DNA of 64,000 nt from Candidatus Woesearchaeota archaeon (lineage in GTDB: Archaea; Nanobdellota; Nanobdellia; Woesearchaeales; JAWBMQ01). Position 1 is the first letter of the stretch, and each line of letters opens with the position of its first letter. Positions 3,148 to 34,762 of the stretch are shown here, piece by piece. Position numbers and translations under genes: made by a program. The notes beneath the pieces were generated by a model. That model ran no database searches and had not been told where the DNA came from. It saw nothing but the letters and a program-made list of their open reading frames with translations. The DNA lies in NCBI GenBank assembly GCA_038828875.1, contig JAWBMQ010000002.1:25314-89313 (forward strand). Reading direction: 5' to 3'.

Positions 3148-3678
3148 ATGGTAAAAAAGGCACAACAATATATTACTTTATTCATTGCAATACTTTTAAT
3201 ATTTTTTTTAATTTTTGGTACAGGAGTAATAATTTCATCATTATCTTTACAAGGAGAAAAAATTACATTATTAATCAATAGTGATTTGGAATCTATTTAT
3301 GCAATAATAGATACACCACTTTATTTATCTTTGAACGATATATCTGATAGTAAGATATATTATAAAGATATTGCTTTAGTAAATTTGCTTAGTGTTTCTT
3401 ATCAAAATAGTATAGATTCTTTACAATATATATTTGAAAAGTATAATTCAACATTTAAGCAAGTTTTCAACGATCTTGTTTGTATAGAGCAATATGAATT
3501 AGATTCAGATGGAAAAAAATCAAATATTGTAATGTATAATGAATGTAAAAAATCAAAAGATTCAGTTTTATTGACTTTTGGCAAGTATAATTTTAAGATA
3601 TCAATCCAGAAAGAATCCGATCAAAAGTTTATAATGAATGAAGCTTTAGAATATTTGAAAAATGTACAGCAAAATTAA
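3148..3678 (+). CDS. Small pilin-like membrane protein (KKAQ followed by a hydrophobic helix)
   Basis: The N-terminus MVKKAQ/QYITLFIAILLIFFLIFG resembles an archaeal prepilin (class III) signal. It sits immediately upstream of the giant protein gene and overlaps it by 17 bp. Confidence 0.4.
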   Translation: MVKKAQQYITLFIAILLIFFLIFGTGVIISSLSLQGEKITLLINSDLESIYAIIDTPLYLSLNDISDSKIYYKDIALVNLLSVSYQNSIDSLQYIFEKYNSTFKQVFNDLVCIEQYELDSDGKKSNIVMYNECKKSKDSVLLTFGKYNFKISIQKESDQKFIMNEALEYLKNVQQN

Positions 3679-6600
3679 GAAAAAATTATTTAGAAATAAA
3701 AAAGGAGTTAATCCTTTTGATGTAGTTTTAGTACTTACATTAACTTCAACAATTATATTTTCATCTATGTTTTTAATATATAGAAAATCCTCACCATCAA
3801 TGATACAGGATTTGGTAAATTCTATATATTCTTATAGAGAATCAGTAAATAGAGATATGTTAAATAATTATCAAGATTCTTTGGTTGATGAAATGTTACC
3901 TTGGGAAGTAGTTTTATCAATTTATGAAAGAGACGGAGAAGGAAAAAAATACAGTAATGATTTGCAACAAAAGATAAGTGCTTCTTTTTATGATGATATG
4001 GTAGGATATTTTTTTGTTATGAACAATATTGATGAAAGTTTCTTAATTGATAAAGTTAGAATTTTATTGCAAGATAAAATTGGATACATTCAAGATATAA
4101 AATATGATTTTTACAATGATAAAATTAAGATTTTTTCATATATTAACAAGGAAGAAGCTTTGAAGGCATCAGCACAAGCATATCGTTTAGAATTATCAAA
4201 AAGTAAAGAATTTCTGTTACAAATTGCTAAAAACGACTGGTCAGATAATTGTCTTTATCTTTTTTTAAATTATTCTGAAAATAAATTGACTTTACCTAAT
4301 GCAATAATATCAGATGATGTTGTACCATTTTACTTGACTTATTTAGCTTCTGATATAAGGTGCACTCCTTTTTGTAGAAGTGGATTCTATAATTTTGAGA
4401 TTTCTGGAATTTCATGTGGTAGTAATAAATTATTCAATAGAGATGGAATTGAAGAAGAAGTTTCTTCAGATATACAAAATACAATTATTACTACTATTGA
4501 TAATTTAAAGCAAGTCTTGACTTTTGTCGATAAGTTGCCATTCGATGCAGAAAATAAATTAAAATTAGTTGCATATCTTATTAAATATCATCCTAACAAA
4601 AAAATAGTTTCTTCTTTATCAACTTTAGATTTGAAAGATCCTAAAAGTTTAGAAGATGCAATCTTAACAATATGTACTAAAGATTTAATAGAGAAGGATT
4701 TTTGTTATTCACGATTGAATAAACTTGAAAAAGATTATAATACCTTTAAATATGATTTTGGTTTAACTAAAAATTACGTTTTTGAAAAAAGCGAAATTTC
4801 TAAAGTTAAAGATGAACGGTTATTAGAATGGACTTATCTTTCTAAACCGTTTCCAATTAAAGAAGTTTCAAAATTATATGTTAATTTTACAGAGATATTT
4901 AAAAAATACGATTTAGGTATAATGATTCTTCCAGATAAAAGAAACCTTACAAATATTACAGAATACTTAAATAATTATTATAACGAAAAAAATGAAACAT
5001 TCAATAAAGTTTTTTTCAATTCTTTGTGGGGATTTAATTTTTCGATTTCTAAAGAGAAATCTAACGATACTGTTGTTTTTGAAGAGTTAGTTGGAGTTAG
5101 TTTTCTTTATTCATTATATTTAAATTCTTTAGCCTTAAAAGATTGTGATATAAATTATGATTTCTTCGATCTAAAGAAAAATGTAGGAACAGATAAATAC
5201 AAATACGATAATTTAATTTTTAATTTAGAAACATTTACAGATAGTGAAAAAACGATTGTTGATAATATTACTCTTGAAATAAAATTAACTGATGGAACAA
5301 AAAAATCATACAAAATAAGTTTTTCCCAGATTAGAGCACTTAATAATGTTTCAATTACTAAAGATACTAGTGTTGATAAATTAAAATTATGTACTGAATT
5401 AACATTTTATTATGTGGTTCCTTTTAGCACTTTCGGTGAATTGATTCCAAAAAAATTAGAATATTCAGTTATTGAATCGGATTTAGAAAAAAAATGGAGA
5501 TTATCAAACTATGAGTATAATTTTTTGTTAGTTATTGAAGGAGAAAAAATTTCACAACATATTTTGAAAGATATAAAGGAAGTAACAATAGATAAATGTG
5601 TAAAATTTCAACCATATAATAATGATGCAATTTTGATTGATTTTTCTGAAAATGATGAAAATTGTCAAAACTTGAAGAATGAAATTATTAGCAATAAAGA
5701 TCAATGGGAAATTTCATGTATAAATGGATTAACTAATGATTTTCTTGCAGAATCAACATATATTCCATTAAAAGAAGGTGATTCAAGAGAAAGTAAGTTT
5801 AGAAATCTTAGAGCTAAAGCAAGAACCTCTTATAAATTAGCCGATATTTTAGTTCAGGATTCATATAGTGGAGAGTATTTCTTCTTTGCAGAGATGGTAA
5901 TTTGTTCAGATGATGATTATCCTATTTTTGATAATTCTCTTACAAGTAGAACAATAACTAAAGAAAAATTAGCAAATATTAAGTTGAGAAATTTGAACAA
6001 GAATTATGATGGATATACTTTTATTGTTAATGACATTTTTCAAGAGAAGTTTGCTTTTATAGAATATTACAATCATAAAGATGATGAACCGCCAATGCTT
6101 GCAAAAATTGAAAAATCTTCTGGTATGTATACTATTACTTTTCTAACTGATTTAGATGTTTCTTTAAGAGATGGAGTTTGTTGGTTTTCAAAATCAAATA
6201 CTAATTATTATGAAATCAAAAATTTGAAAGTTTTTGTAAATAAAGATGTTGAAAAATATAATAAAATTTCTTTTGAAACTAATTATTCAAATATTTCAAA
6301 ATACAATTCTCCTTCAATCAGTTATCATACAGAAAATCAAATAAAATTAACTTTTGATATTAATTTTAGTTTTAATTTTACATCTGTAAGTTTGAAAAGA
6401 GCAAATATTTATAATGATATTTTATCAGCATTTATAATGAAAGACATTTGGAATATTACAGTAAGTGCGTTTCCATCTTTATCTTCTGCTTTTGCTTCTG
6501 CTCTTGCTTCAGCTTCTGATTTTTTCAATTGTTCCTTGAAAAATATTAAATTAGATTTAGATCCATATTACATGATTTACATAGCTGAAGGGTTGTTAAA

Positions 6601-9600
6601 CTGTGAATTAGTTTTGGAAGATGAATCTCATGATTTTATAAGTTATGATAAGGAGATTTCTGATTTATTAAATAATAACGAATTTATACTTTATGTTGAT
6701 CAAATGTTGGATGAAAAAAATACGGCGAAAGTTGAATGTTTATCATCTGTAGTTGGAAGTTATACGACAGGTGGTTCTACTTTAGTAGAAGATTGTGGAA
6801 TTGATTATTTTCAAGCTAGTAAAAATTCTATTGAAAAAGGTGATAGTGTAGATTTGAGTTATGGTTTAAAAGCGAATCGTGAATGTTTTTATCATCTAAG
6901 ATGTACTAACGGCTTAATTGACAAACCTATAAAATTAGCTCAACCGTTTGATAGTGATTTTTCTAATACGGATCCTGTTGTATTTGATGATATTGGAACT
7001 TATGAGTGTAAGCTAACTGTTGAACGAGATGGTGCTGAAGTTGCCTCACAAAGTCATATTATAGAGGTATTTGAAAAGTGTCAAGCAGAAATAATTAGTT
7101 TTGAAATAACGCCTTTAGTAGCAAAAAAAAGAGAAAATATTGATTTTAGCTTTGAAGTTAATCTATGTCCAAATAATTTTGTTAATTTATATTGTGTTAA
7201 TAAGGATTCTGGAAGTAAGATCCCTTTTGTTTCAAATAATATCGATTTGATTTACAAGCAAAAAAATTATTTTAATGAAATTGGTAAATATGATTGTAAT
7301 TTGGAAATAACGAGAAATTCAGTAGTAGAAATCTCAGATTCTAAGCAAATAGAAATTTTTGATGTTTCCGCTTTAGTTTCAACACCATCTGCAACTCCCA
7401 CAACATCTTGCACAGCTAAAATAAATTCTTTTGAATCTTCAAAAACTACGCTTAAACTTTCTGAATCTGTTGATTTAAGTTGGGATGCAACAATTTGTTC
7501 AGGTGATGAATTACTTCTTGAATGTAATGATGAAAATGGTATTCAGGAATTAAATTCTAAGGTAAATTCTATTGGTAAAAGAACATTTAATCCAAGTAAA
7601 GAAGGAACATACATTTGTAAGTTAAGCATTTTAAAGAGTTCTGGAGGAGTTGTTAGTAGATCATTATCTTTGAATGTAATGTGTGAAAGAAAAATCAACG
7701 ATTTCTTTGCTTCTCCTATAGAAGTATGTAAAGATGGAGACGTTTCATTATCATGGGATGTTAAGATTTGTAAAAATGAAAAAGTTAATCTTTATTGTAG
7801 TGTTGATAAAACAAACTATGATGTTACTTCTTTAGTTAGTAAAACCTATACTGTTAGTGATATAAATAATCATTTATGTACCCTTTCAATTCTAGATGAT
7901 TCAGGAAATGTTTTAGTATTCATGAACACTAATTTTAAATCACTTTCTTGTGTAGTACCTACATCAACAACCTCTTGTACTCCTAAAATTAATGAATTCA
8001 AATCTTCAAAGAGTAAAATTGAAATTATTAATTTAGCAAATAATGAGAAATTCACATTATCTTGGAATGCAAATTTATGCGGTAATGAAGAGCTTAATTT
8101 AGTTTGTAATCCAGGATCTATTAATCAAAAAGGTTTGTCAGCAAGTGGAACTTATAATGTAGTTGCAAATTTAGATGAAACCTATAGTTGCGAGTTGAAA
8201 TTAATTGATAAATCTGATGGTTCTATTATTGATGCCAAAGATGTTAAGGTTGAAGTTATTGATAAAAGAATAACATTCACATTAAATACTAATAAAATTG
8301 AATATTCAAGTACTGTGAAAGCAACATGGACGGCACCTGCAAAAGCTAAATCAGTTAAATTAATTTTAGATTATGATTCTTTGACTGATATTGAAGAGAA
8401 ATTATCTACTTCAGGAAGTAAAGATTATCAATTAAAAGATTTAGTAAAATTTATTTATATTGTAGAGTTTAGAGATGGTAGTTCAAAAAATATAGAATTG
8501 CCTGTATGTGTTTTACCAAAAGCTAGTTTATCTGTACAGCCGATTGGGTGTAAAAAATACAAAGTTGATTTAATTTTAGAGCATAATGAGAGATTTTTAA
8601 AAAATCAAATTAAAGATGTATCCATTTCTGATAAATCCGGATTAAGTGGAAGTTATTCATCTAATAAAATGAGTTATTCAACACAATTAGAAAACAAAGC
8701 ATCTGATTTAAATGATAAAGTAATAATTATGTTTAATAATTTTTGTAATACTCAAGAGGTTACATATAGATATCCACCAATGACTATTCCTTCATTTACA
8801 TTTTCTGGAAGTGTTCAACATAATGAATTTTTAGTTGAAGATTGTAATAAGAACACTTTTATACAAAAATATACTACAAAAATTACAGGTAATAATTTTT
8901 TGAATTATTTTGATAAATTTAGCTTACGTAGTATCACATCAGGAAATGAGTTTATTAAGGATTTATCTTTCAATGAATTTAACTCTAAAACAACTTATGT
9001 TTCAGGAGATATTGAAATAAATTTTGATAAAAGTGGAAATAAATTAGAAATTATTAGAAAGAATGTTCAAGCACCATGTGGATCTTTAGAATCTCCTGTA
9101 ACGCACCTTTTAACTCTTACAGATTGTAATGGTAAAAATTATGAAGTTTATTTTGAATTTACTTTTAAAAAGAAAGGAACAACAGTTTCGTCAACTTCAC
9201 CTAGTTCTTCAAAATCATGCAAAATTGATTCTTTTACAGTAACTCCATCTAAATTAGATTTAGCTAAAATTAAAAAATTTACAATAAGTTATAGTCTTTC
9301 AAATTCAATTGAAAATAAATTATATGTAAAAGGTCCAAAAGATACAGTATTTCAAGATAAGAGTGGGATATTAACACAAAAAGAATTAGTTCCAACTCAA
9401 TTAGGTAAATATATTTTTAATTTAACTTGCAAAGGAAATGATGGAATTATTAATAGTAAAGTTGTTGAAGCAGAGGTTGTAGAATCTTGTTATATAGATA
9501 AATTTACACTTTCATCAGAAAAAGTAAGTATAGGACAATCTGTTAAAATAACTGCTAATTTTAGGAATTCACAACTAAGAAAACTTTTAATAAATCGAAT

Positions 9601-11611
9601 TCAACCAAAGCAAGAAAAAATAGTGGATGAAACAATAACTAAGGAAAATCATGAATATACTTGGAATAATATAAAAGAATTAGGAACTTATAATATTACA
9701 ATTCAATGTAATTCATCATCATCTAATGAAATTGTTCAACAATCAAAAATCGTGGAAGTTTCAAGTCCTTGTGAATCTACTACATTTAGTGTGGATAAAA
9801 CTAATTTACTTGTTGGTGAAAATGTTAAAATTACTTATTCAGTATCAAACGGCGCAAAACTAAATATTTCGATTACATCATCAAAAACGACGATACCAGA
9901 GCAATCATTTACGTCTTCAGGATCAACCAGTCATAAATTTGATAATGAAGGAATTTATAAAATAATAGGAAAATGTTTTGAAGGTGATGTTTTAAAAATT
10001 AAAAAGGAGATAGAGATTAATGTTATCAAACCTAAAACTACAAAAGAATGCAAGCCAGTAACTGAATTTAAGATAGATTCTAAAAAAATTAATAATAATC
10101 TAATTTTAAAGGATTTTAATCAAAATTTACAGTTAGACAAATTTTCTTATGAATTTGAGATTTCATTTAATGGGAAAGTTTCTAGTGAAGATCAACGCAT
10201 AGTTTACGAAGAACCTAAAAAATTAAATTTAGTTTTTTCTATTGATACGAAGAAAGGTAGAAAGGAATTTACTTTTTCAATTTCTGATACTTCTAAAAGT
10301 TCACAAGATTATTTTTTAATAAGTAATTATGGTGACGTAAAGAAAGAGAATGTCAATGATTTGTTGAATAAAATTATTGAGGATCCTCTTAATAATAAAT
10401 TTGGCTTCCCTAATGAAAATAACGATGATTTTTATCTGATTAGTTTATTTTTTACTTATGATCCTACTAACAAAATAATAAAAGTAAAATTAAATTATTA
10501 TTTCAAAATATTTTTTTACCAGCCCAGATTGAAAAGGTTGAAAAATAATCCAGGTACCCCTTTTTATTTGATTCCAACAGGGCTAGCTTTAAACTTTGAC
10601 AATAGCCTAATTTTTAACATAGACAAAATTTGTGAAAATTCAAACAGAAAGGTTCAGATAAAATTAAATGTTTATGACAAGGTATTTTCACAAATCTTTA
10701 ATAAGATTAATGATGCACGTGAAAAATTGTATAATTTGTTAAATAATAAGAAAGTTGGTTTTATTACTAGTGATAGATCATTAATTGGAAACAAAGATTA
10801 TATCTTCAAATATGATGGATTCTATGATCCATTGTTCAAAAATCAACAATTCTTTCCTTATTTAAGTATTATTAAGTATTATTTTTTTGATACTAACAAA
10901 GGTACATCCTATATTCTTATTTGTCTTTCTAGAGAGAGCGAACTTTATTGTGCTAAACCAATTACTTATGGTGAATTAGAACATATTCTAGAAAAAAATA
11001 GCAAAACTTTAGTATTTCTTGATACTATTGATTCTTCGTTTGCAAAATTGTATAGTTCTACATTCGGATATGTTTATTTTAAAGATTATACCGCTCGAGG
11101 GTATTGGTTTTTATCATTTATTCCACAAGTAGTGTTAGTAAATGCTAAAATGAATATTATTGATGATATCCTCTTAGACGAGGGATCAAGTGGAGCAGTA
11201 CGGATACAATATTCTTCAGGAGTACACTATAGTGCATTTAAAGAACGTTTTTTAAATGAAATAAAAAGTCCAAATTCATATACTGAAAATATTGTTAATG
11301 TTGAAAATGTTGCTAAAATTATAAAATTTAAATCTAGAGATTATGTTATTGGTAAGGTAAAATATAATGAAATAATGGAATATTATGAAGAATATTTACT
11401 AAATTTTAAAAATATAGCTTCTTTTGATTTCATTTTTTCTAATTATTTTTTATCATCATTTGAGACAACTTCTTTATTCTACGGAGAACGAAGAGGAGTT
11501 ATGATTATTTATCCTTATAATCATGCTAATAGAAAATACATGGTTAAAAAATATCTAAATACGAAAAGTGATAATTCAAAGGAATTAGTTTCAATAACTA
11601 CAATTCAATAA
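3662..11611 (+). CDS. Giant (2649 aa) cell-surface repeat protein, putative adhesin
   Basis: Uninterrupted 7.9-kb ORF. The N-terminus is basic, then KKG, then a hydrophobic helix (VNPFDVVLVLTLTSTIIF), which looks like a class-III-type signal or anchor. The central region has at least six repeated ~90-aa modules, each with a Cys pair and a Trp (e.g. C..KIN.F.SS...L.LSW.A..C...L.L.C), typical of Ig-like or adhesin domains. There is also an S/A-rich linker. Confidence 0.7.
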   Translation: MYSKIKKKLFRNKKGVNPFDVVLVLTLTSTIIFSSMFLIYRKSSPSMIQDLVNSIYSYRESVNRDMLNNYQDSLVDEMLPWEVVLSIYERDGEGKKYSNDLQQKISASFYDDMVGYFFVMNNIDESFLIDKVRILLQDKIGYIQDIKYDFYNDKIKIFSYINKEEALKASAQAYRLELSKSKEFLLQIAKNDWSDNCLYLFLNYSENKLTLPNAIISDDVVPFYLTYLASDIRCTPFCRSGFYNFEISGISCGSNKLFNRDGIEEEVSSDIQNTIITTIDNLKQVLTFVDKLPFDAENKLKLVAYLIKYHPNKKIVSSLSTLDLKDPKSLEDAILTICTKDLIEKDFCYSRLNKLEKDYNTFKYDFGLTKNYVFEKSEISKVKDERLLEWTYLSKPFPIKEVSKLYVNFTEIFKKYDLGIMILPDKRNLTNITEYLNNYYNEKNETFNKVFFNSLWGFNFSISKEKSNDTVVFEELVGVSFLYSLYLNSLALKDCDINYDFFDLKKNVGTDKYKYDNLIFNLETFTDSEKTIVDNITLEIKLTDGTKKSYKISFSQIRALNNVSITKDTSVDKLKLCTELTFYYVVPFSTFGELIPKKLEYSVIESDLEKKWRLSNYEYNFLLVIEGEKISQHILKDIKEVTIDKCVKFQPYNNDAILIDFSENDENCQNLKNEIISNKDQWEISCINGLTNDFLAESTYIPLKEGDSRESKFRNLRAKARTSYKLADILVQDSYSGEYFFFAEMVICSDDDYPIFDNSLTSRTITKEKLANIKLRNLNKNYDGYTFIVNDIFQEKFAFIEYYNHKDDEPPMLAKIEKSSGMYTITFLTDLDVSLRDGVCWFSKSNTNYYEIKNLKVFVNKDVEKYNKISFETNYSNISKYNSPSISYHTENQIKLTFDINFSFNFTSVSLKRANIYNDILSAFIMKDIWNITVSAFPSLSSAFASALASASDFFNCSLKNIKLDLDPYYMIYIAEGLLNCELVLEDESHDFISYDKEISDLLNNNEFILYVDQMLDEKNTAKVECLSSVVGSYTTGGSTLVEDCGIDYFQASKNSIEKGDSVDLSYGLKANRECFYHLRCTNGLIDKPIKLAQPFDSDFSNTDPVVFDDIGTYECKLTVERDGAEVASQSHIIEVFEKCQAEIISFEITPLVAKKRENIDFSFEVNLCPNNFVNLYCVNKDSGSKIPFVSNNIDLIYKQKNYFNEIGKYDCNLEITRNSVVEISDSKQIEIFDVSALVSTPSATPTTSCTAKINSFESSKTTLKLSESVDLSWDATICSGDELLLECNDENGIQELNSKVNSIGKRTFNPSKEGTYICKLSILKSSGGVVSRSLSLNVMCERKINDFFASPIEVCKDGDVSLSWDVKICKNEKVNLYCSVDKTNYDVTSLVSKTYTVSDINNHLCTLSILDDSGNVLVFMNTNFKSLSCVVPTSTTSCTPKINEFKSSKSKIEIINLANNEKFTLSWNANLCGNEELNLVCNPGSINQKGLSASGTYNVVANLDETYSCELKLIDKSDGSIIDAKDVKVEVIDKRITFTLNTNKIEYSSTVKATWTAPAKAKSVKLILDYDSLTDIEEKLSTSGSKDYQLKDLVKFIYIVEFRDGSSKNIELPVCVLPKASLSVQPIGCKKYKVDLILEHNERFLKNQIKDVSISDKSGLSGSYSSNKMSYSTQLENKASDLNDKVIIMFNNFCNTQEVTYRYPPMTIPSFTFSGSVQHNEFLVEDCNKNTFIQKYTTKITGNNFLNYFDKFSLRSITSGNEFIKDLSFNEFNSKTTYVSGDIEINFDKSGNKLEIIRKNVQAPCGSLESPVTHLLTLTDCNGKNYEVYFEFTFKKKGTTVSSTSPSSSKSCKIDSFTVTPSKLDLAKIKKFTISYSLSNSIENKLYVKGPKDTVFQDKSGILTQKELVPTQLGKYIFNLTCKGNDGIINSKVVEAEVVESCYIDKFTLSSEKVSIGQSVKITANFRNSQLRKLLINRIQPKQEKIVDETITKENHEYTWNNIKELGTYNITIQCNSSSSNEIVQQSKIVEVSSPCESTTFSVDKTNLLVGENVKITYSVSNGAKLNISITSSKTTIPEQSFTSSGSTSHKFDNEGIYKIIGKCFEGDVLKIKKEIEINVIKPKTTKECKPVTEFKIDSKKINNNLILKDFNQNLQLDKFSYEFEISFNGKVSSEDQRIVYEEPKKLNLVFSIDTKKGRKEFTFSISDTSKSSQDYFLISNYGDVKKENVNDLLNKIIEDPLNNKFGFPNENNDDFYLISLFFTYDPTNKIIKVKLNYYFKIFFYQPRLKRLKNNPGTPFYLIPTGLALNFDNSLIFNIDKICENSNRKVQIKLNVYDKVFSQIFNKINDAREKLYNLLNNKKVGFITSDRSLIGNKDYIFKYDGFYDPLFKNQQFFPYLSIIKYYFFDTNKGTSYILICLSRESELYCAKPITYGELEHILEKNSKTLVFLDTIDSSFAKLYSSTFGYVYFKDYTARGYWFLSFIPQVVLVNAKMNIIDDILLDEGSSGAVRIQYSSGVHYSAFKERFLNEIKSPNSYTENIVNVENVAKIIKFKSRDYVIGKVKYNEIMEYYEEYLLNFKNIASFDFIFSNYFLSSFETTSLFYGERRGVMIIYPYNHANRKYMVKKYLNTKSDNSKELVSITTIQ

Positions 11612-11653
11612 TAACAAATATTTATATATTGTTTTTGCAAAAGAAAGTAGAAT

Positions 11654-12946
11654 ATGATAGAACTCTTTAGAATTTCAAAGAAAGCTAAGTTTTTGTTTTT
11701 ATGCTTATTTTTTTCTTTAATGATTTCCGTTTCAGGAATTCAACAATTTCATCCTGCTTCAGAAATTGAACCAGGTACTTTTGGTACTGATTTGTATATT
11801 GGAAATTATTCTTTTCCTGATTCTTTAAGTGTTGCAAATAATCTTTACGTTGGTCAAAGAGTTGGTATTGGTGTTTCTAATCCAAGAGATGCTTTAGAGG
11901 TTGTTGGTAATTTAATAGTTTCTGGAGGAGATCGATACATAGGTTTAGTTGATAATTTTGCATTAGGAATAAGAACAAATAACATTGATAGAATTTATAT
12001 TACTAATTCTGGAAACGTAGGCATAGGAACAACAAGTCCTGGTTATAAGTTAGATATAAGTGGAACCTTAAGGAGTACCCAAGATGCATATTTAGCAACA
12101 AGTAGTGGTAATGTAGGCATAGGAACAACAAGTCCGAGTACAAAGTTACAAGTGGTAGGGGATATAGGATTAAGTGGTGCGGATAGATTTATAGGAACAA
12201 TAGATAATTATGCATTAAATTTAAGGACGAATAATGCTAATAGGGTAACAATAACTAATGCAGGAAATGTTGGTATAGGTACAACAAGTCCTGGTTATAA
12301 ATTAGATATAAGTGGAACAATAAGGAGTACAGATTCGACATATTTAGCTACATCCTCAGGGAATGTAGGTATAGGGAGTATAAGTGCAAGTTATAAATTA
12401 GATATAAGTGGAACATTAAGGAGTACTCAAGATGCATATTTAGCAACAAGTAGCGGTAATGTAGGCATAGGAACAACAAGTCCGAGTACAAAGTTACAGG
12501 TGGTAGGGGATATAGGATTAAGTGGTGCGGATAGATTTATAGGAACAATAGATAATTATGCATTAAATTTAAGGACGAATAATGCTAATAGGTTAACAAT
12601 AACTAATGCAGGAAATGTTGGTATAGGTACAACAAGTCCTGGTTATAAATTAGATATAAGTGGAACCTTAAGGAGTACAGATTCGACATATTTAGCTACA
12701 TCCTCAGGGAATGTAGGTATAGGGAGTACAAGTGCAAGTTACAAATTAGATATAAGTGGAACATTAAGGAGTACTCAAGATGCATATTTAGCAACAAGTA
12801 GTGGAAACGTAGGCATAGGAACAACAAATCCCCAAGCGAAGTTGCATGTAGAAGGTAAAATAAGGGTTAATAATGCAATTCAAGATTCAGGAGGTACAGA
12901 TAGAATAACATTCTCAGGAACTAATGTTATAATTACGATAGGATGA
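11654..12946 (+). CDS. Gly-rich fibre-like repeat protein with a Sec signal peptide (tail-fibre / trimeric-fibre-like repeats)
   Basis: Hydrophobic N-terminal signal. Eight copies of the motif SSGNVGIGTTSP(G/S)YKLD(I/V)SGT.RST, ending ...GNVGIGTTNPQAKLHVEG. This resembles the N.GIGTT.P.AKLHV repeats found in phage tail-fibre and fibre-domain proteins. Confidence 0.65.
   Translation: MIELFRISKKAKFLFLCLFFSLMISVSGIQQFHPASEIEPGTFGTDLYIGNYSFPDSLSVANNLYVGQRVGIGVSNPRDALEVVGNLIVSGGDRYIGLVDNFALGIRTNNIDRIYITNSGNVGIGTTSPGYKLDISGTLRSTQDAYLATSSGNVGIGTTSPSTKLQVVGDIGLSGADRFIGTIDNYALNLRTNNANRVTITNAGNVGIGTTSPGYKLDISGTIRSTDSTYLATSSGNVGIGSISASYKLDISGTLRSTQDAYLATSSGNVGIGTTSPSTKLQVVGDIGLSGADRFIGTIDNYALNLRTNNANRLTITNAGNVGIGTTSPGYKLDISGTLRSTDSTYLATSSGNVGIGSTSASYKLDISGTLRSTQDAYLATSSGNVGIGTTNPQAKLHVEGKIRVNNAIQDSGGTDRITFSGTNVIITIG
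12101..12840. repeat. Near-identical tandem direct repeat, 348-bp unit x ~2.1, within the coding sequence
   Basis: Copies starting at 12101, 12449 and 12797 are nearly base-identical (compare ...agtagtggtaatgtaggcataggaacaacaagtccgagtacaaagttaca...). A degenerate ~108-bp sub-repeat is also present from about 11990. Confidence 0.75.
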
Positions 12947-13013: not shown

Positions 13014-15089
13014 TCAATTTAACGGTAAACCGCTCCAAAATTTCCAATCTTCAGAAGGAATTAAGTAAAGGTTATGACCATATTCACCAACTCTATACTT
13101 ATGATAAACGTTATCCCAATTTACATCACTCCATGAAACTCCTGAATTTCCACGAACGTAAACTGCATTAGCAATATTTCTCCAAGCAGCAAACAATTGT
13201 TCATTAGGATCACTCCAACCTTCAGAATTGATAGGTCCTTTATAGCCAGATTCTACTAATTTCTTAACAATTTCTTTCAAAGGTAATTCTCCTTCACCAG
13301 GTGGAAGTTGAGAATGACCGCCAAGAGAATCGACTAAATGCACATTTCCAATAACTTTTTCATCAATCAGTTTTTGAACTTTTTCCTTGAACCATTCTAA
13401 GAAAAGTTCGTCTTTTTTATCAGGATTATTAGCTTTAAAATAATTTTTCCATAAAGCCATATGTTCAGTATCTAATGTCATTTTAATATGTTTTTCAGCT
13501 AATTCTTTAGCTTTGTTAACATCTTTAACATAAAAAGGATTCTTAATTTTTTTTCCATTTTCTTCAATTTCAGGACTTGTTAACATTTCGACCATTTTTT
13601 TCCTTGCTTCTTTTATTAAATATAAAATTTCATCAGGATGAGTTCCAAATCCTCTTCCAGCTTCCCAATTTTCAGGAGCAATGTAAATAGGTTTAGGTAA
13701 ATTGTTTTTTTGAGTATATTCTAAAGCTTTTAATCCCATTTTAGCTAAAGTTTCTATACTTTTGTTAATTGCTACATCTTCTAAAGCCTTTATTCTTTCT
13801 TTTCTAGCTTCAATTTCTTTAAGCTGTTCTTCATAGCTTATCATTGCTTCGTATCTTCTTTTAGCTTCAACTTGTAAAGTTTGTATATATTTTTCTACAG
13901 CATCAACTTTTTTAAGTTCATCTACAGGAACATTAAAGCCTGCAACGTGCAACATATCAACATGAGTTAATAAATATCTTTTCAAAGGTTCAGGTAATTC
14001 TTTATTATTTTGAATTATATCTTCTCTCTTTTTCAACTCTTCTTTGAATTGTTCTAATGCAATTATACTTTTCTTAATTTGCTCAAATTCTTTCATCATT
14101 TCTATTTTTCTAGATTCTGCTTCTTTTTCTTGTTTTTCCATAGAAAGTAATACTAATGATAGATGAGGTTTATCATAAAGTTCATTTACATCTTTAATTA
14201 CTCCTTTATTTTTCATCTCAATTGCATTACTTGCTATTTTAGCAGCAATAGCTTTTAATTTTTCATCCTTTATTTTTTCAATTTCTTTCAATTCTTTGCA
14301 ATTTTTCAACAATTCGCCTGCCTTTTTAAAATCTTCAAAAGATGCTAAATCTACTTTAATATTTCCATTTTCCCAAGGTTGCTTAAATCTTATTTCGTTT
14401 CCTTTAATTTCAAAACTTTCCAAAGCAATAGGAATTGTAGTTTTTTCAGAAATTCCGCTAATTTCACCTTTTTCAACATCTACAACGTAATAAGGTTTTT
14501 CGCTTGTAACTACAAAACTTCCGTATTTTTTTTCTTCTTCTTCATAAACATTTTTCAAAGCACTTATTCTTGGTTGTCCTGGTACTTCAGCTACGTGAAC
14601 AACAATAGCAACACCGTCACTTTTACTTTCTTGTTTTTTTGGCATAATGTCTGATGCAAATTTCATCACATGATCAACTTTATTCATAAACAAATTAATT
14701 CTATCTTCACTTATTTTTCCTCTTTCAGGATCTATTCCAGAAAGTCCTTCTACATAAGTAGGAACATGAACGCTATTAACTTCAACTCCAGTAGCAAATT
14801 GTAATTCTCTTAACTCCTGCCTTTTTAAATTTCCATATCCTTCTACTCCATAACCCATTGCTTGTTCATTTGTAGCTAATTCAACTTTAGTTGTACCTTT
14901 TCTAGAAGCTTGAGCTAATGTTTTTCTAAAATCTCCTCCAGCATTGGGTCCTTCTGTAATGGTCATACCTATTCTACCTGTGCTTATTATTGGTTGCTCA
15001 AGTTTTTTATCTATGGCTAATTGAGCATTCTTTTGCTTATCCATTAATTCCTTAAATTCTTTTTCCCATTCAGGTACATAGTAGCTCAT
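13014..15089 (-). CDS. Xylose-isomerase-like TIM-barrel (sugar phosphate isomerase/epimerase, AP-endonuclease-2 fold) protein interrupted by a ~250-aa coiled-coil insertion
   Basis: The N-terminal segment (NSVHVP..., HVAEVPG) and the C-terminal segment (LDTEHMA...; NVHLVDSLGGHSQLPPGEGELPLKEIVKKLVESGYKGPINSEGW) match conserved metal-binding strands of the XylA-like TIM barrel. The middle segment is K/E-rich heptad-like. Confidence 0.45.
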   Translation of the reverse strand: MSYYVPEWEKEFKELMDKQKNAQLAIDKKLEQPIISTGRIGMTITEGPNAGGDFRKTLAQASRKGTTKVELATNEQAMGYGVEGYGNLKRQELRELQFATGVEVNSVHVPTYVEGLSGIDPERGKISEDRINLFMNKVDHVMKFASDIMPKKQESKSDGVAIVVHVAEVPGQPRISALKNVYEEEEKKYGSFVVTSEKPYYVVDVEKGEISGISEKTTIPIALESFEIKGNEIRFKQPWENGNIKVDLASFEDFKKAGELLKNCKELKEIEKIKDEKLKAIAAKIASNAIEMKNKGVIKDVNELYDKPHLSLVLLSMEKQEKEAESRKIEMMKEFEQIKKSIIALEQFKEELKKREDIIQNNKELPEPLKRYLLTHVDMLHVAGFNVPVDELKKVDAVEKYIQTLQVEAKRRYEAMISYEEQLKEIEARKERIKALEDVAINKSIETLAKMGLKALEYTQKNNLPKPIYIAPENWEAGRGFGTHPDEILYLIKEARKKMVEMLTSPEIEENGKKIKNPFYVKDVNKAKELAEKHIKMTLDTEHMALWKNYFKANNPDKKDELFLEWFKEKVQKLIDEKVIGNVHLVDSLGGHSQLPPGEGELPLKEIVKKLVESGYKGPINSEGWSDPNEQLFAAWRNIANAVYVRGNSGVSWSDVNWDNVYHKYRVGEYGHNLYLIPSEDWKFWSGLPLN

Positions 15090-15173
15090 ATTCTCTTTTT
15101 AGTATTTTATAATATATAAATATGTTTTTTCAATTCATAACTTTTATAAATTTTGACTACTTTCAAGTAGAAA

Positions 15174-16049
15174 ATGCCACGATCTGATAATTTTTGGGAA
15201 TTTTTTGATGGATTTTTTAATGAGAATAATTCTTATAGAAATAATTACTATAATGACTTTCTGAGGACAAATCAAAAATATTATGAAAATATAATCTTGG
15301 ATTATTTAGTATTAGAGCCAGAACTGCTTCATTCTGAATTTAAAGCGTATCAGATGCAGGATTTACTTATGTTACTAAATCTAGAAAATAGGGTCTCGTT
15401 GATAAAAAATATAAATTCTTCTTATTCAAGAATAAAGGAAATTTCAACAAAGAAAGAAATGAATTATTATCCAATTGATGTTTTTGAAAAATTTACAAGA
15501 TTATATAATGCATATTCTCAGTTAAAAGAATACAAAAATCAATTAGATTCAAATCTTAGACAATTAATTTCCTATGTAAACATTCCTTCTTACTACGACG
15601 TAGATTTTGATGATTTGTTTGTTTTTCTTGAAACAAATTCAAGGTATTATAATAAAATGAATGAATTATATGAAGGCTATAGCAATTTAAAAAATCAATT
15701 AGAAAAATGGGTTAATGCTTATGAACTTTTGATGGAAAAAAATCTTTTAAAAGAGTTTATAGAATTAGGAAAACAATGGAAAGAAGAGGTTAAAAAAAGA
15801 AACATTCCTGAATCATCTTATAATGATCAAGCACTTTTAAAGGAATTTAAAGATATGCATGCTAATTTAGAAAGAAGTTATACTAATTTGAAGAATATAG
15901 AGGTAAGAGAAAGATATTCTAAGATATATGCTGCTGTCAAAGATGTAATCAATTCAAATATGTTTCCTGTAGAGGTTTTATTTATGTTAAAGAATCAACT
16001 TATGAGGAAGAAGTTGCAGAGAAAAGAATATCAAGATTATAGAGATTAG
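15174..16049 (+). CDS. Hypothetical helical K/E/N/Y-rich protein
   Basis: 291-aa ORF with no recognisable motifs. Confidence 0.5.
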   Translation: MPRSDNFWEFFDGFFNENNSYRNNYYNDFLRTNQKYYENIILDYLVLEPELLHSEFKAYQMQDLLMLLNLENRVSLIKNINSSYSRIKEISTKKEMNYYPIDVFEKFTRLYNAYSQLKEYKNQLDSNLRQLISYVNIPSYYDVDFDDLFVFLETNSRYYNKMNELYEGYSNLKNQLEKWVNAYELLMEKNLLKEFIELGKQWKEEVKKRNIPESSYNDQALLKEFKDMHANLERSYTNLKNIEVRERYSKIYAAVKDVINSNMFPVEVLFMLKNQLMRKKLQRKEYQDYRD

Positions 16050-16052
16050 AAA

Positions 16053-16934
16053 ATGAATCTTTATGGTTTACTTGAAAATTGTGCATTGTGTCCAAGAAAT
16101 TGCAAAGTGAATCGAAAAGAAGAAACAGGTTATTGTAAAATAGGTTATACCCCTAAAATAAGTTCAATTTATATTTCTGCTTCAGAAGAACCTGTTCTAT
16201 GTAATGAAATAGGTTCAGGTTTAATATATTTTTCAGGATGTCCTATGGATTGTATTTATTGTCATATGTCTGGATTTTCTAGAACCGGAAAAGGAAAAGA
16301 AATTACATTGGATGATCTTGTTGATTCAATGTTAAGAATTCAAGAAAAAGGAGCTAAAACACTAATGTTATTATCCGCAACCCAACATTTACCTTGGGTT
16401 CTTGAAGCTATAGATTTGGCAAAATCAAAAGGATTTTCATTACCAATAGTTTATAAAACATCAGGATATGAAAAAATAGATGTTTTAAAGATGATGAAAA
16501 ATTACATTGATATTTATTTACCTGATTTAAGATATTCTTCAAATGAAATAGGAGAAAAATATTCTCATGTGTCTAACTATTGGGATGTAGCAAGAGATGC
16601 AATAACTGAAATGTATAACCAAGTAGGTCCTTTTGATGAAAATAAGATGAAAGGATTGATCATAAGACTTTTACTTTTACCTTATGATTTGAATGGTACA
16701 GAACATGCATTTAAATTTGTTAAATCATTAAACGAAAAAATTCCAGTTTCAATAATGACTCAATACACACCATTATTTGAAGCAAGACGTGATGAATATC
16801 TTTCAAGGCCTCTTAATACCGAAGAAATTTTCAATGTAATTGTTTTAGCTGCAAGATATAATATTAATGGATGGATTCAGGGTGAAAAATTAAGTTTTGA
16901 AGAAGCAAGAAAAAGAATAATCCCTATTAAATAA
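16053..16934 (+). CDS. Radical SAM protein, PflX-like (COG1313; pyruvate-formate-lyase-activating-enzyme homolog)
   Basis: N-terminal CALCPRNCKVNR...GYC motif followed by the canonical CPMDCIYC (CxxxCxxC) cluster. Confidence 0.75.
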   Translation: MNLYGLLENCALCPRNCKVNRKEETGYCKIGYTPKISSIYISASEEPVLCNEIGSGLIYFSGCPMDCIYCHMSGFSRTGKGKEITLDDLVDSMLRIQEKGAKTLMLLSATQHLPWVLEAIDLAKSKGFSLPIVYKTSGYEKIDVLKMMKNYIDIYLPDLRYSSNEIGEKYSHVSNYWDVARDAITEMYNQVGPFDENKMKGLIIRLLLLPYDLNGTEHAFKFVKSLNEKIPVSIMTQYTPLFEARRDEYLSRPLNTEEIFNVIVLAARYNINGWIQGEKLSFEEARKRIIPIK

Positions 16935-17033
16935 AGATTATTGTTTTGATTGTTGTTTTTTTAAGGATTTCAAATTCAAAGGAAAAAAATATATATTAGT
17001 TTTAATTACTTAAATGTAGTTAAAGGTGATACT

Positions 17034-17822
17034 ATGAGTACATACCTAGCTAAAGAATGGCATGAATTGCAAAAATTGGTAATGTATTTATTGAATCAAG
17101 GTGTTGATTTTAGTGATGAAGAACAGATGAAAAGATTAGGTGAAGTGCGCGAAAGTATATTAGAAATGAGTTTTCGTAATTTAAGACAAAATGATCTCGA
17201 AGAATTAAGAGATATTATAAATTATGTGAAAAACGGAAGCAGAGAATATAATCAAAAAAATAATTTTTATTATAATGATAGTAGAGACAGTGAGAATGTT
17301 TCGAAACAGTTAAGAAAAGAATATATGAGTCATTTTAATGAAAATTCATCAGTAAAAAATATTGATGATTTATTCATGAGTTTTTTAACATGTGAAAGTG
17401 GAAGAGCTAGTAGTAAAGATAATTATAAGCAAGAATATAATCCAAATTACTCAAGATCTGATTCTTATGAAAGGAGATATGATAATCTAAAAAATAATTA
17501 TAATTCAAATACTAATAATAACTTTTCAAAGAATCAATCAAATTTAGATTCACTTTTGGAGGAGTTGCTTTCTCAAGTTCAGAAAGAGTATAGAGGTAAT
17601 AAATCTGTTGATAATAAAAAATCAGACGACAAATATTTAGAACAAAATAAAAATCAAAAAGCATTAGATGCTTCAGAAAAACCAGAACCACTAGAATTCT
17701 ATTGGCCATCTAAGAAGAAGGAAAATAAAGATGATCAGTACATGGACTCTTACACTAGAAGAAAAAAAGAAGAAGAGAAAAGGTACCGTATATTTGATGA
17801 CGATGAAAATCCGTTCTTTTAA
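17034..17822 (+). CDS. Hypothetical low-complexity (N/K/S/Y-rich) protein
   Basis: 262-aa ORF preceded by AGGTGA. Contains Asn-rich tracts. Confidence 0.4.
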   Translation: MSTYLAKEWHELQKLVMYLLNQGVDFSDEEQMKRLGEVRESILEMSFRNLRQNDLEELRDIINYVKNGSREYNQKNNFYYNDSRDSENVSKQLRKEYMSHFNENSSVKNIDDLFMSFLTCESGRASSKDNYKQEYNPNYSRSDSYERRYDNLKNNYNSNTNNNFSKNQSNLDSLLEELLSQVQKEYRGNKSVDNKKSDDKYLEQNKNQKALDASEKPEPLEFYWPSKKKENKDDQYMDSYTRRKKEEEKRYRIFDDDENPFF

Positions 17823-17860
17823 TTATAAGTAGATTGTTTTTTCTTAATTGTTTTCTTTTT

Positions 17861-17884
17861 CTTTCTTTCTTTCTTTCTTTCTTT
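17861..17884. repeat. (CTTT)6 microsatellite within a T-rich intergenic tract (17838-17890); possible terminator region
   Basis: The sequence ctttctttctttctttctttcttt is read directly. Confidence 0.8.
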
Positions 17885-17974
17885 GTTTTTAGATTCTATG
17901 TAAATTTAAAGTTCAAAAAATTTATAAATAAGTATTATTACTTTTAAATAGTAACAAAATATTGAGGTGAAAAA

Positions 17975-18748
17975 ATGCCAGACTCTTTAGAAGAAAAGAT
18001 AAAAAATTTTTCTAATTTAGTTAAATTAGTTGCAATCGATCAGGTGAATTTTGAATTATCATCAAAATTTATGAATGTAATAAATGATATCATTCATAAT
18101 CATCCAAAAGGATATTATTATTTAACTTCAAAATACGGTTCTGTTGAAGAGGCAAAAAGATATAGTGGAATTACTGGAATTGATTTTAGAATTTCAACAT
18201 GGTATTATGATATTAGAAGAACTACAAGAGAAGCAGATCCCTATTTAGATTTTCTTTTAAGGGAAGTTTATGAGCCTTTTAAAAATAACGAGGAAAGATA
18301 TAATATTTATGATTTTTCAAGAAGACATTTAGATAATACAAGTTCATATGATGTACTTATGGAAGATTTATCAGCGATTTGGTATTGTTTTCCCCAGATG
18401 TATGTTGCAGGAAGAGAACTTGTTAATATGTTTATTAATCAAATGAAAAATATTAGTTCATCCAGAAGACAGCTAGAATTATTAGACACATTAATAGAGA
18501 AATATCGTGATTCTTTTCGCCTATTTCAAGAAAGTGCAAAGGAATTAGTTAGAGATTATCAAAACAGTGGTTCTGAACAATTTAAAATCTTGATGAAAAA
18601 TGTAGGTTCAAGATATCAGTTGTTAAAAGATGCAGAAACAAGATTTAGAGAAAAATTGGCAGATTACTTAATGAATGAATATCTCCCAAGTAATTATGGA
18701 TATAGAATTGATGGAAGAAGAATACCTCAGCCATGGGATATCTTTTAG
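17975..18748 (+). CDS. Hypothetical protein
   Basis: 257-aa ORF preceded by GAGGTGA. Confidence 0.5.
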   Translation: MPDSLEEKIKNFSNLVKLVAIDQVNFELSSKFMNVINDIIHNHPKGYYYLTSKYGSVEEAKRYSGITGIDFRISTWYYDIRRTTREADPYLDFLLREVYEPFKNNEERYNIYDFSRRHLDNTSSYDVLMEDLSAIWYCFPQMYVAGRELVNMFINQMKNISSSRRQLELLDTLIEKYRDSFRLFQESAKELVRDYQNSGSEQFKILMKNVGSRYQLLKDAETRFREKLADYLMNEYLPSNYGYRIDGRRIPQPWDIF

Positions 18749-18764
18749 TTAGGGGTGAAAAGTT

Positions 18765-19421
18765 ATGTCAGAAACAATACAAAAAATTGAAGATCATGAA
18801 AATAATGAAAAATCACATTTTATGGAATATAGAAAATATTATTCTATGTTAGAATCAATGGTCGAAAATCAGTTGATAGTGAGTGGTTGGGATTTTGAGA
18901 AAGTGAAGAAGCATATAAATTTTTTATCTCCTTATGATTTATCAGATAGAGTGACAAAAAAATTAGAAGAGTATCATAATTTTGCATCAACTGATGTGCT
19001 AGACCGGCTAAAAAATATTTTTAAGGAAGTCTATGCCAATAATCCTTCAGTACCGTATTCAATACTTTCTTCTTTAAAAAAAGGGTTTGATGCAAGTTAT
19101 GAAAATTTAGATAGATTAAGAAAGAAAAATTTAAAAATCATTTCTTCTACAGAAGCTATTTCTGTAGAAGACTATTATCGAGAGCTTCATAATTTAAAAG
19201 ATTTTTTAGAGTTAGGCATGATTTTCGATATGTTAAATAAATTATTTAGTAAATTATATTCTTTTAATCAAGGTAAAGATACTATTGAGCAAGATTTTTT
19301 TGATGAGTTATTCTTTTTGAATTTAAAAGTTAAGAATTATATGAGAAACAATGCAAATAATGGTTGTCAAAATTGTAACAAAGATGCAGATTTATTAACA
19401 GATTTATATATTAAACTTTAA
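18765..19421 (+). CDS. Hypothetical protein with a C-terminal CQNCNKD motif
   Basis: 218-aa ORF preceded by GGGGTGA. Confidence 0.5.
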   Translation: MSETIQKIEDHENNEKSHFMEYRKYYSMLESMVENQLIVSGWDFEKVKKHINFLSPYDLSDRVTKKLEEYHNFASTDVLDRLKNIFKEVYANNPSVPYSILSSLKKGFDASYENLDRLRKKNLKIISSTEAISVEDYYRELHNLKDFLELGMIFDMLNKLFSKLYSFNQGKDTIEQDFFDELFFLNLKVKNYMRNNANNGCQNCNKDADLLTDLYIKL

Positions 19422-19425
19422 TCTT

Positions 19426-19803
19426 TTACCTTTTATTCTTTATTAGAAAAATTCTAGCAACAATAGGATTGTAATGAGTAAAATTTCCGGAAATAAAAAG
19501 ATTATAAATTAGTTCAGCATTCTCATTAACAAATTCTAACTTTAAGCCAGAAACATAAACCTTACATCTTAAATTGAGCTTTTCATAATATTTAGTACAT
19601 ATTTCAGAAGCATAGGTTAAATTTCTTTCAATGACCGCATTTCTAAAATCCTCATCTTCTAATAGTTTTTCAATATGAATTTTTTGATCTAATCTATTAG
19701 CTTTGAAAAAAAGAAAAACCCCTAGCAAAATTATGCTAACTAGTAAAATGCCACCAATCGTTGCTTCTAAAGTTTTAATAAAACTTTTTTTCATTCTTTC
19801 CAC
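19426..19803 (-). CDS. Small N-terminally membrane-anchored protein (possible pilin-like)
   Basis: N-terminus is MERMKKSFIKTLEATIGGILLVSIILLGVFLFF. Confidence 0.4.
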   Translation of the reverse strand: MERMKKSFIKTLEATIGGILLVSIILLGVFLFFKANRLDQKIHIEKLLEDEDFRNAVIERNLTYASEICTKYYEKLNLRCKVYVSGLKLEFVNENAELIYNLFISGNFTHYNPIVARIFLIKNKR

Positions 19804-21071: not shown

Positions 21072-21409
21072 TTTCTTTTTTGTTTTCAGTGTTGTAAAAT
21101 TTCAATTGCTTTTTCAACTCTATGTTTTCATTCGTTATTCTTTGAAGCATTAAAAACAATTGCTTATTTTCTTTTCTTAATCGGGCTATTTGTTTATCCT
21201 TGTGTTTGATTATTTCGATAATTTCCCTTTTGTTTTTCTTACTTGATTTTTTTAAATTCATAAAATAAATAATTAAATTTTCGTAAAACTCAAAATACTT
21301 TTCAAAAATTTTTATAAATATTTTTAACATCTTTGATTTTTTAGTATTCTTAAATTATAAAAGTTACTAACATAAAATTTTTAAATTAAGTGTTTGTTTT
21401 TAAAATCTA

Positions 21410-29255: not shown

Positions 29256-29267
29256 TGCGGTGAAAAC

Positions 29268-30008: not shown

Positions 30009-30062
30009 TTTCAAATTAACAAATTTTATAAATGGTTCTTTTTTTGGTAGTTTGGTGATATT

Positions 30063-30575: not shown

Positions 30576-30637
30576 AAATAGATTTTTAAATAACAAAATT
30601 TATAAATTATGTAATACTACTACTAAATGGTGATACA

Positions 30638-31114: not shown

Positions 31115-31148
31115 TTTGTTTATTTTTTATATTTTTTGAGGTGGGATA

Positions 31149-31932: not shown

Positions 31933-31934
31933 AA

Positions 31935-33550: not shown

Positions 33551-33599
33551 TAGATTTTGAAATCATAATATTTTTTAATTCTTTTTTGATATTTTATAA

Positions 33600-34133: not shown

Positions 34134-34187
34134 TCTTTTTTATTTTTTTAAGTTTTCTTTAAAATTTTAAAAAATTTTATAAATGAT

Positions 34188-34760: not shown

Positions 34761-34762
34761 AT

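Follow-up and report, generated by a model that had tools for sequence, protein, structure and literature searches.

A protein homologous to fibre stalks, with a tandemly duplicated cassette, encoded in the chromosome of a Woesearchaeota archaeon

The stretch of DNA analysed here, referred to below as the window, comprises 64,000 nucleotides (~26% G+C) of contig JAWBMQ010000002.1 from GCA_038828875.1, a metagenome-assembled genome (MAG) of a Candidatus Woesearchaeota archaeon. On its plus strand, at 11654-12946 (a range that includes the stop codon), the listing of open reading frames (ORFs) gives a gene for a protein of 430 residues, which matches tail-fibre families of PHROG and the Bdellovibrio MAT fibres in the PDB. 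We consider it probable, though far from secure, that this gene encodes an exported cell-surface fibre of a tiny DPANN archaeon of the symbiotic type, with a stalk of the phage/MAT type and a middle region that varies in length.

Nearly the whole chain is composed of modules of the form GNVGIGTTxPxxKLxVxG. A preliminary description of this DNA had counted eight uniform repeats; the repeat architecture stands but the uniform eightfold count does not, as there are nine GxVGIG motifs distributed over two module types, and the YKLDISGT.RST pattern is confined to the five 32-residue S modules (Sa to Se). The protein begins with a signal-peptide-like N-terminus (residues 1-28, MIELFRISKKAKFLFLCLFFSLMISVSG; 11654-11737) and a short mature N-terminal segment (residues 29-66, IQQFHPASEIEPGTFGTDLYIGNYSFPDSLSVANNLYV; 11738-11851), followed by modules in the order L0-Sa-[L1-Sb-Sc]-[L2-Sd-Se] and a C-terminal piece, all on the plus strand. 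L0 (residues 67-119; 11852-12010) is a divergent long module of 53 residues with 58% DNA identity to L1 and L2, and is followed by Sa (residues 120-151; 12011-12106). Next come L1 (residues 152-203, 52 residues; 12107-12262), Sb (204-235; 12263-12358) and Sc (236-267; 12359-12454), and then their counterparts L2 (268-319, 52 residues; 12455-12610), Sd (320-351; 12611-12706) and Se (352-383; 12707-12802). The 47-residue C-terminal piece (384-430; 12803-12943) is devoid of any Pfam domain and consists of the last GNVGIGTTNPQAKLHVEG motif and KIRVNNAIQDSGGTDRITFSGTNVIITIG, with only 29 residues following the final GxVGIG motif. At the DNA level L1 and L2 are 98.7% identical, Sb and Sd 97.9%, and Sc and Se 96.9%, whereas other pairs of S modules show 75-86% identity; this gradation indicates a set of older module duplications followed by a single duplication of the entire cassette.

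The L-S-S cassette of 116 residues, or 348 nucleotides, is the unit of a tandem array of 2.37 copies at 12008-12831 of the plus strand. The array was recovered by Tandem Repeats Finder (period 348, 2.3 copies, 12017-12831, 95% matches, score 1490, with 96-bp periods nested within it), by a separate repeat search (348 spacing with 252/96 sub-spacing), and by base-by-base comparison at an offset of 348, in which 12008-12483 resembles 12356-12831. The near-identical 348-bp units at 12101 and 12449, and the partial third one, which had been pointed out earlier, are therefore real features of the window: 12101-12448 and 12449-12796 differ at 7 of 348 positions (98.0% identity), the core 12042-12453 differs from its partner at 10 of 412 (97.6% identity), and the third copy is partial and ends at 12831. 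This degree of similarity is far above chance. The cassettes differ at 10 sites, seven of them synonymous and the others giving the conservative replacements V198L, I223L and I243T, a pattern that appears consistent with purifying selection. The longest identical run is a stretch of 93 bp (12152-12244, repeated at 12500-12592), and the repeats as a whole are in frame, near-identical and of a length suited to homologous recombination. A diversity-generating retroelement was considered as the source of the differences between cassettes and rejected, as the 10 differences are not adenine-specific and no reverse transcriptase is found among the scanned ORFs.

Homology to fibre stalks and predicted export

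The resemblance to tail fibres, first noticed in the repeats, has been substantiated by searches at the level of sequence, profile and fold, all of which indicate trimeric β-helical fibres. The protein matches the PHROG tail-fibre families phrog_9942 (2.8e-36) and phrog_18345 (5.1e-24); 24 GenBank phage records are recovered by tblastn with 25-35% identity, under the annotations tail fibre, virion structural protein or 'chaperone of endosialidase'; and 271 viral structure models in BFVD match at E<=1e-3. In the PDB, a single-sequence phmmer search recovers Bd2133 (4.4e-9), and a profile of 60 homologues run against the entire database recovers Bd2133 (1.5e-31), Bd3182 (2.3e-15), Bd1334 (8e-14), Bd2439 (4e-12), MyRF (0.004) and nothing else; the relatives of solved structure are the MAT fibres of Bdellovibrio bacteriovorus only. 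Module L1 aligns with a β-helix region of Bd2133, and the capping-loop motif V-G-x-G..P...L of β-helix stalk modules is present in the archaeal protein. The MAT fibres (mosaic adhesive trimers) are displayed on the surface as intertwined trimeric β-helices with this motif in their capping loops, and at their ends they have an S74 chaperone or else adhesive tips that can be swapped (Caulton et al., PMC10769870). No confident match to a non-fibre family was found; the hits to LLC1, EutS and acylphosphatase in Pfam/NCBIfam are of low complexity, lie far below the cut-offs, and were rejected as spurious.

These repeats belong to a very large family: of clusters formed at 50% identity, at least 67,569 were recovered at E<=1e-3, and 1,864 of them pass E<=1e-30. 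Many members of the family are giant proteins. Of the 120 best homologues, 21 have an S74 chaperone. Signal or transmembrane N-termini are found in about nine of 59 aligned homologues, the others being phage-like; near-identical internal cassettes occur in seven of the 59, indicating that recent cassette duplication is a trait of the family. A scan of genome contigs yielded two relatives only. Cellular relatives with a signal peptide are a protein of an Aenigmatarchaeota MAG (L002), whose gene neighbours those for ProRS and a proteasome subunit, and P0007, a close relative in its L module, which is encoded beside SecE-NusG-L11 in a bacterial chromosome. Both come from ultra-small or low-GC prokaryotes and share with the Woesearchaeota protein an N-terminal signal/transmembrane segment and the long module, ..GNIG.[QS][AG]G.N.FIGT[LI]DNYALSLRT.N.DR..IT..GNVGIGTT.P, the module of L002 being 46% identical. 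They differ from it in that P0007 ends in an S74 chaperone, L002 has an N-terminal domain of ~170 residues and other inserts, and neither has the L-S-S duplication. Relatives occur in two Woesearchaeota species (three MAGs) as well as in the Aenigmatarchaeota MAG, and the earlier suggestion that such repeats are rare in archaeal chromosomal genes could not be established.

The point at which the protein begins is of consequence for its predicted export. Public annotations disagree, placing the start at M1 (window 11654) in QXS41_03620 and at M23 (window 11720) in QW210_01025; from M23 onward the sequence is that of NCBI MEM2031905.1 from a 'Candidatus Woesearchaeota archaeon' MAG. As read directly from the sequence rather than by a signal-peptide predictor, residues 1-28 comprise a K-rich n-region and a 14-residue hydrophobic core, and AlphaFold2 (AF2) places a helix at residues 2-26. 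The M1 start is favoured on sequence grounds: such a K-rich and hydrophobic N-terminus matches those of the cellular relatives, the syntenic orthologue of 923 residues described below has a hydrophobic yet unrelated N-terminus with near-identity setting in at I29, and an element TTTATATA is situated 25 nt before the ATG at 11654. This unrelated part of the orthologue spans its first 24 residues, and near-identity starts at exactly I29 (IQQ.HPASEIEPGTFG). An unrelated hydrophobic leader followed by an abrupt onset of conservation is what a cleaved signal peptide would be expected to show, and the fibre protein is probably exported and processed in this manner. A class III (pilin-type) signal was judged unlikely, since the KKA motif of the protein is followed by a Lys; Lys at +1 after KKA is atypical of such signals.

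The element TTTATATA (11621-11628, plus strand) resembles an archaeal TATA box, and the 691-residue gene downstream has a TATA-like element in the same geometry (15113-15120, minus strand). Exact matches to TTTATATA number 10 in the 64-kb window against 18.6 expected by chance. These features are suggestive only of a promoter specific to the fibre gene and of a leaderless or short-leader mRNA. A scan with a sigma-70 promoter and terminator model found no terminator, and its bacterial-type promoter model is not applicable to archaea.

A number of observations weigh against the proposal of an exported fibre. The AF2 model, a monomer prediction only, has a predicted TM-score (pTM) of 0.45, with low confidence in the S modules and both termini (pLDDT <50 in residues 29-66), and TM-scores to the solved fibres are low, the chain being extended. 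The annotation of NCBI for the window's own MAG starts at M23 and thereby drops the signal peptide. Peptidase_S74 (PF13884), for which a check had been recommended in the preliminary description, is absent from the protein (Pfam, E<=0.01). Likewise no C-terminal tip domain was recovered in the Pfam, NCBIfam and PDB searches, which detected repeats only, and, judged by length, the 38 residues (29-66) that separate the signal peptide from the first repeat are too few for the anchoring domain of ~130 residues found at this point in MAT proteins. The absence of chaperone, tip and anchoring domain is the main weakness of the fibre model. Lacking PF13884, a tip and room for the ~130-residue N-terminal domain, the protein is best described from its sequence as a relative of the stalk and not as a MAT protein in the strict sense.

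Length differences between assemblies and between species

The exact 430-residue protein was not found in the protein collection searched, in which the closest entry (P0001) has 314 residues, that is, 430 minus 116. It is encoded on contig JAWBLI010000010.1 of another Woesearchaeota assembly (GCA_038830485.1), which over ~20.5 kb shows no substitution relative to the window, and differs from it in having one 348-bp unit fewer and one extra CTTT. Removing 348 nt from the window gene in silico gives P0001 exactly. The shorter allele carries the variants specific to the first unit through 12151 and those specific to the second from 12593, which places its junction within the 93-bp stretch 12152-12244 = 12500-12592. 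The prediction that the repeat would give rise to length variation thus finds a concrete instance in a second assembly that lacks one cassette in an otherwise substitution-free region. The accompanying suggestion of a very recent duplication is right only in a relative sense, in that the copies are near-identical; 10 differences between cassettes against no single-nucleotide polymorphism in 20 kb between strains indicate that the duplication is much older than the strain split, and hence that the 314-residue form is the derived state.

The same data can be read in another way, namely that all cells carry the 2.37-copy gene for 430 residues and that the 314-residue version was produced by an assembler taking a shortcut, in which case the protein would remain a fibre but there would be no length variation within the species. 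The locus had been flagged as a potential site of assembly collapse, and it is one: k-mers of the window allele recur at all values of k to 91 but not at k>=99, with the repeated 77- and 91-mers lying only within 12152-12592. If a de Bruijn assembler running at k<=91 skipped the loop at the 93-bp node, its product would be precisely the shorter allele, which has its junction in that very stretch and carries no private substitutions. However, homologous recombination would also place the junction in this, the longest identical stretch. The Logan contigs (k=31) of SRR27730013 and SRR27730014 both break around the gene, and since the 314-residue allele has no repeated 31-mer, a sample with only that allele should assemble through. 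Yet these contigs break at 11767 and 12043 to the left of the array and at 12776 and 12839 to its right, and as 11767 and 12839 are not repeat positions, the breaks say little on copy number either way. Two of the breaks in SRR27730014, the end of contig L013 (12043) and the start of L015 (12776), fall where neither allele would give a branch point. Further alleles could exist, such as one joining the identical 29-nt stretches 12080-12108 and 12776-12804 with loss of both cassettes. Scanning metagenome contigs with the N-terminal 119 residues detected no near-identical locus and hence added no data on copy number.

The second difference between the two assemblies is an intergenic (CTTT)n microsatellite (window 17861-17884) of six units in the window and seven in JAWBLI010000010.1, which is easily spanned by short reads. 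The Logan contigs of both sequencing runs end inside this repeat, that of SRR27730013 at the exact point where six- and seven-unit alleles diverge and that of SRR27730014 3 nt short of it. As the microsatellite difference is no assembler artefact and a contig ends where the alleles diverge, two genotypes probably coexist. The repeat (17855-17885), which looks polymorphic in the population sampled, lies between ORFs 17034-17822 and 17975-18748, where it might influence the promoter of the gene downstream. Locus length also differs for real at the next taxonomic level, as described below. On balance, an origin of the 314-residue version in assembly alone is a serious contender, to which we nevertheless give less than an even chance. 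We infer that the difference between 314 and 430 residues exists in cells and not merely in assemblies, and regard the case for variation in stalk length as good but not proven.

An exhaustive search identified an orthologue of 923 residues (P0125), encoded in synteny with the window gene in GCA_038889815.1. The right flank of this third Woesearchaeota MAG has 86.7% DNA identity to the window over 10.3 kb. The two proteins are identical at 128 of 137 positions of the mature N-terminus, a block that includes the 29-66 segment, and at 46 of the last 47 residues. The centre of the orthologue is ~500 residues longer and different in content, with one S-L-S cassette that is 81% identical in DNA to that of the window. 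Lengths of 314, 430 and 923 residues are thus found at one syntenic position, and the combination of conserved ends with a different centre indicates that the locus keeps the ends of the fibre and varies its stalk.

Conservation of the surrounding genes in the sister species is uneven. The giant gene upstream of the orthologue encodes 1946 residues with 31% identity to its 2649-residue counterpart in the window, the small ORFs are 34-59% identical, and other neighbours range from 53% to 99%. A comparison of window 13014-22198 with 12840-22029 of contig L020 likewise gives a mosaic, in which the proteins of 691 and 426 residues are 99% identical and those of 291 and 262 residues 53%. Such a pattern suggests either recent recombination between lineages or very uneven constraint.

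Chromosomal setting and neighbouring genes

The matches to phage tail-fibre PHROGs and to viral structure models, the S74 chaperone in a portion of the best homologues, and the phage-like N-termini, without signal peptide, of most aligned homologues could all be taken to mean that the gene encodes a viral tail fibre, left by an archaeal provirus that is integrated or degraded, rather than a cellular surface protein. The setting of the gene argues to the contrary. Its four upstream neighbours have no significant PHROG match (the best being E 0.004, for a 176-residue ORF), the window ORFs that were scanned include no integrase, capsid or terminase, and the other neighbours, for which Pfam only was used, either have no match or are archaeal housekeeping genes. 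The gene occupies the same place beside the same housekeeping neighbours in two species at ~87% identity. Viral relatives are distant, those in IMG/VR being only 26-32% identical and those among GenBank phages no closer than noted above, and a signal-peptide-like N-terminus would be needless in virion fibres, which are assembled in the cytoplasm. A proviral origin therefore seems to us very improbable; the fibre gene is a chromosomal archaeal gene and is not borne by a prophage.

Archaeal markers in the window are a D-aminoacyl-tRNA deacylase (PF04414, DTD2), an archaeal-type ProRS, SufS, SufB/D, SufC, the NOG1 GTPase, RadA and an S-layer protein, which carries PF05124. The fibre gene is preceded on its own strand by the 3' part of a giant gene (14-2461), whose product has 2203 residues in Logan contig L012, by two small ORFs of 179 and 176 residues, each with a single N-terminal hydrophobic helix (2600-3139 and 3148-3678), and by a second giant gene (3662-11611), whose end is 43 nt away from the fibre gene. 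This second giant gene encodes an orphan protein of 2649 residues with an N-terminal hydrophobic segment. A search of 5.8 billion clusters recovered only this protein and its upstream paralogue, the two giants being 31% identical over 23% of their length. Neither giant protein nor the 179-residue ORF has a match in Pfam, PHROG or NCBIfam, and the 176-residue ORF has marginal matches only, to PHROG families of unknown function (E 0.004-0.009). Judging from position alone, the 2649-residue protein may be associated with the fibre. Downstream there is a convergent gene for a TIM-barrel protein of 691 residues. The position of the fibre gene is kept in three Woesearchaeota MAGs. The gene stands where a conserved chromosomal core gives way to a hypervariable island encoding giant surface proteins.

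Several ORFs of the window start with KK[SAG] followed by Q or a hydrophobic residue and a hydrophobic helix, namely 2600-3139 (KKS-QTTEELTLW), 3148-3678 (KKA-QQYITLF), 19426-19803 on the minus strand (KKS-FIKTLEATIGG), 19791-21071 on the minus strand (KKS-QTEHIDEIF) and 3662-3780 (KKG-VNPFDVV). These N-termini are similar to the class III (type IV pilin-like) signal peptides of archaea.

Elsewhere in the window, 28557-37185 is occupied by fifteen consecutive ORFs on one strand (118-414 residues), rich in K, E, N and Y and without a Pfam match, only the last of which (36562-37185) has a hydrophobic N-terminus. The run starts directly after a tRNA-Phe gene (28424-28499, minus strand), which is overlapped by the 3' end of ORF 27415-28551 on the plus strand, implying that this ORF is shorter than listed or not a gene. 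Three tandem paralogues of 310, 320 and 330 residues follow at 37642-40592, with the N-terminal pattern ..F.AKS.EEL....Y..HDHR.Y......Y.ISDYDYH.., and one of them has a marginal match to a transglutaminase-like family (DUF553).

Proposed structure and role of the fibre

By analogy with the solved Bdellovibrio MAT fibres and phage tail fibres, in which such modules build a stalk of this kind, we propose that a Sec-type signal peptide (residues 1-28) directs export of the chain, and that three chains would then form an intertwined homotrimeric β-helical stalk with capping loops. Published dimensions of Bdellovibrio fibres (135 residues per 60 Å, 370 residues per 142 Å, and ~550 Å for full-length Bd3182; PMC10769870) would scale to a thin stalk of ~15-30 nm in length. 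The conserved N-terminal segment is expected to lie at the cell and the conserved 47-residue C-terminal piece at the distal end; both the trimer and this orientation are transferred from the relatives. The middle of the stalk, with its two 116-residue L-S-S cassettes, would serve as a length module. As the copies are 97.6-98% identical, a cassette could be lost or gained in frame through replication slippage or through homologous recombination of the RadA type, each step altering the stalk by an estimated 4-8 nm and leaving both ends untouched. A likely role, shared with the hypervariable giant proteins encoded upstream, would be in surface attachment or spacing, for example where the cell touches a host or a particle. 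A function in adhesion or host contact is suggested by the relatives and by the DPANN lifestyle. One could go further and view the protein as a phage-type trimeric fibre cut to the minimum of signal peptide, stalk and 47-residue tip, serving DPANN archaea as a host-contact organelle in parallel with the bacterial predator Bdellovibrio, with a reach tuned by recombination within a single population; this is an attractive but speculative idea that we would not expect to hold.

The protein might instead be an exported β-rich structural protein and not an adhesin, acting as a strut or spacer with the S-layer or its giant neighbours, or as the subunit of a pilus-like polymer, with the repeats setting distance. 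Compatible with this are the lack of a recognizable binding tip or lectin domain in Pfam and NCBIfam, the distance of 43 nt from the giant orphan surface protein gene upstream, the pilin-like N-termini of small neighbouring ORFs, and the presence of an S-layer protein gene in the window. It could also account for a C-terminus, ..SGTNVIITIG, that recurs in unrelated-looking exported proteins elsewhere in the fashion of a docking strand. On the other hand, all characterised relatives, phage fibres and MAT proteins alike, are receptor-binding fibres, the conservation of 46 of 47 C-terminal residues alongside a variable stalk is the pattern of a functional tip, and the Lys that follows the KKA motif speaks against a pilin-type subunit. 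A purely structural role is accordingly a possibility that we rate as low, and we retain the exported cell-surface fibre as the preferred interpretation.

The C-terminal sequence (12917-12943) specifically resembles the ..GSVIIRLG that ends three exported proteins in two unrelated metagenome contigs (L004 ~4484-4507; L006 ~3788-3811 and ~5299-5322), one of which, a protein of 274 residues, is without fibre repeats; similarly, P0047 ends in ..SGNVIIEL and P0090 in ..GNTVIITL. To judge from the sequences, these ends are more likely to be a degenerate last repeat strand (cf. ITNAGNVGIG) than a sorting signal; a terminal docking strand would be an alternative to the degenerate repeat.

The closest parallel among known systems is the NS74 subgroup of the Bdellovibrio MAT proteins (Bd2133, Bd1334 and Bd2439; 8OND, 8OML and 8OL4; PMC10769870). 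Like the archaeal protein, for which the signal peptide is putative, these are cellular proteins with a signal peptide, have the same GNVGIG..P..KL stalk modules and lack an S74 chaperone, and both show mosaic evolution with conserved ends and an exchangeable middle. The archaeon presumably relies on contact with other cells, as Bdellovibrio does. The differences are that the present fibre is archaeal and has 430 residues in place of ~1,000, that it lacks the conserved N-terminal domain of ~130 residues, with only 38 residues before the first repeat, and that it has a 47-residue end piece in place of a folded tip (β-sandwich, TNF-like or C-type lectin). Variation in it affects the number of stalk cassettes, whereas in MAT proteins it takes the form of tip swapping. 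From the S74 fibres and tailspikes of phages (e.g. the L-shaped fibre pb1 of T5, 4UW8, and K1F endosialidase, 3GW6; PHROGs 9942 and 18345), it is set apart by the absence of PF13884, the putative signal peptide, the chromosomal non-viral context and the low identity (25-35%) to phage records.

A parallel of a different kind is provided by tandem-repeat surface proteins such as alpha C/Rib of group B Streptococcus and Vlp of mycoplasma, in which the number of repeats changes by recombination. As in these proteins, near-identical repeats stand in frame in a protein that is probably exported, and the assembled alleles differ by whole units with the ends constant. The fold and the domain of life are different, however, and two or three copies allow only a small range of variation in the archaeal gene.

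The protein is a new and minimal archaeal member of a very large and known family of fibre-repeat proteins, and it leaves the general picture of that family unchanged. Woesearchaeota and other DPANN archaea are mostly uncultivated, and to our knowledge the mechanism by which DPANN archaea attach to their hosts is not known. In practical terms, the locus is a warning that the gene is mis-started in one public annotation and that one public MAG may carry a collapsed copy. It also offers a concrete, expressible candidate, a small fibre with no tip whose prey-binding homologues have solved structures, and a natural example of change in stalk length with both ends kept. If the protein were indeed a DPANN host-contact fibre, it would be a first molecular handle on partner recognition in Woesearchaeota.

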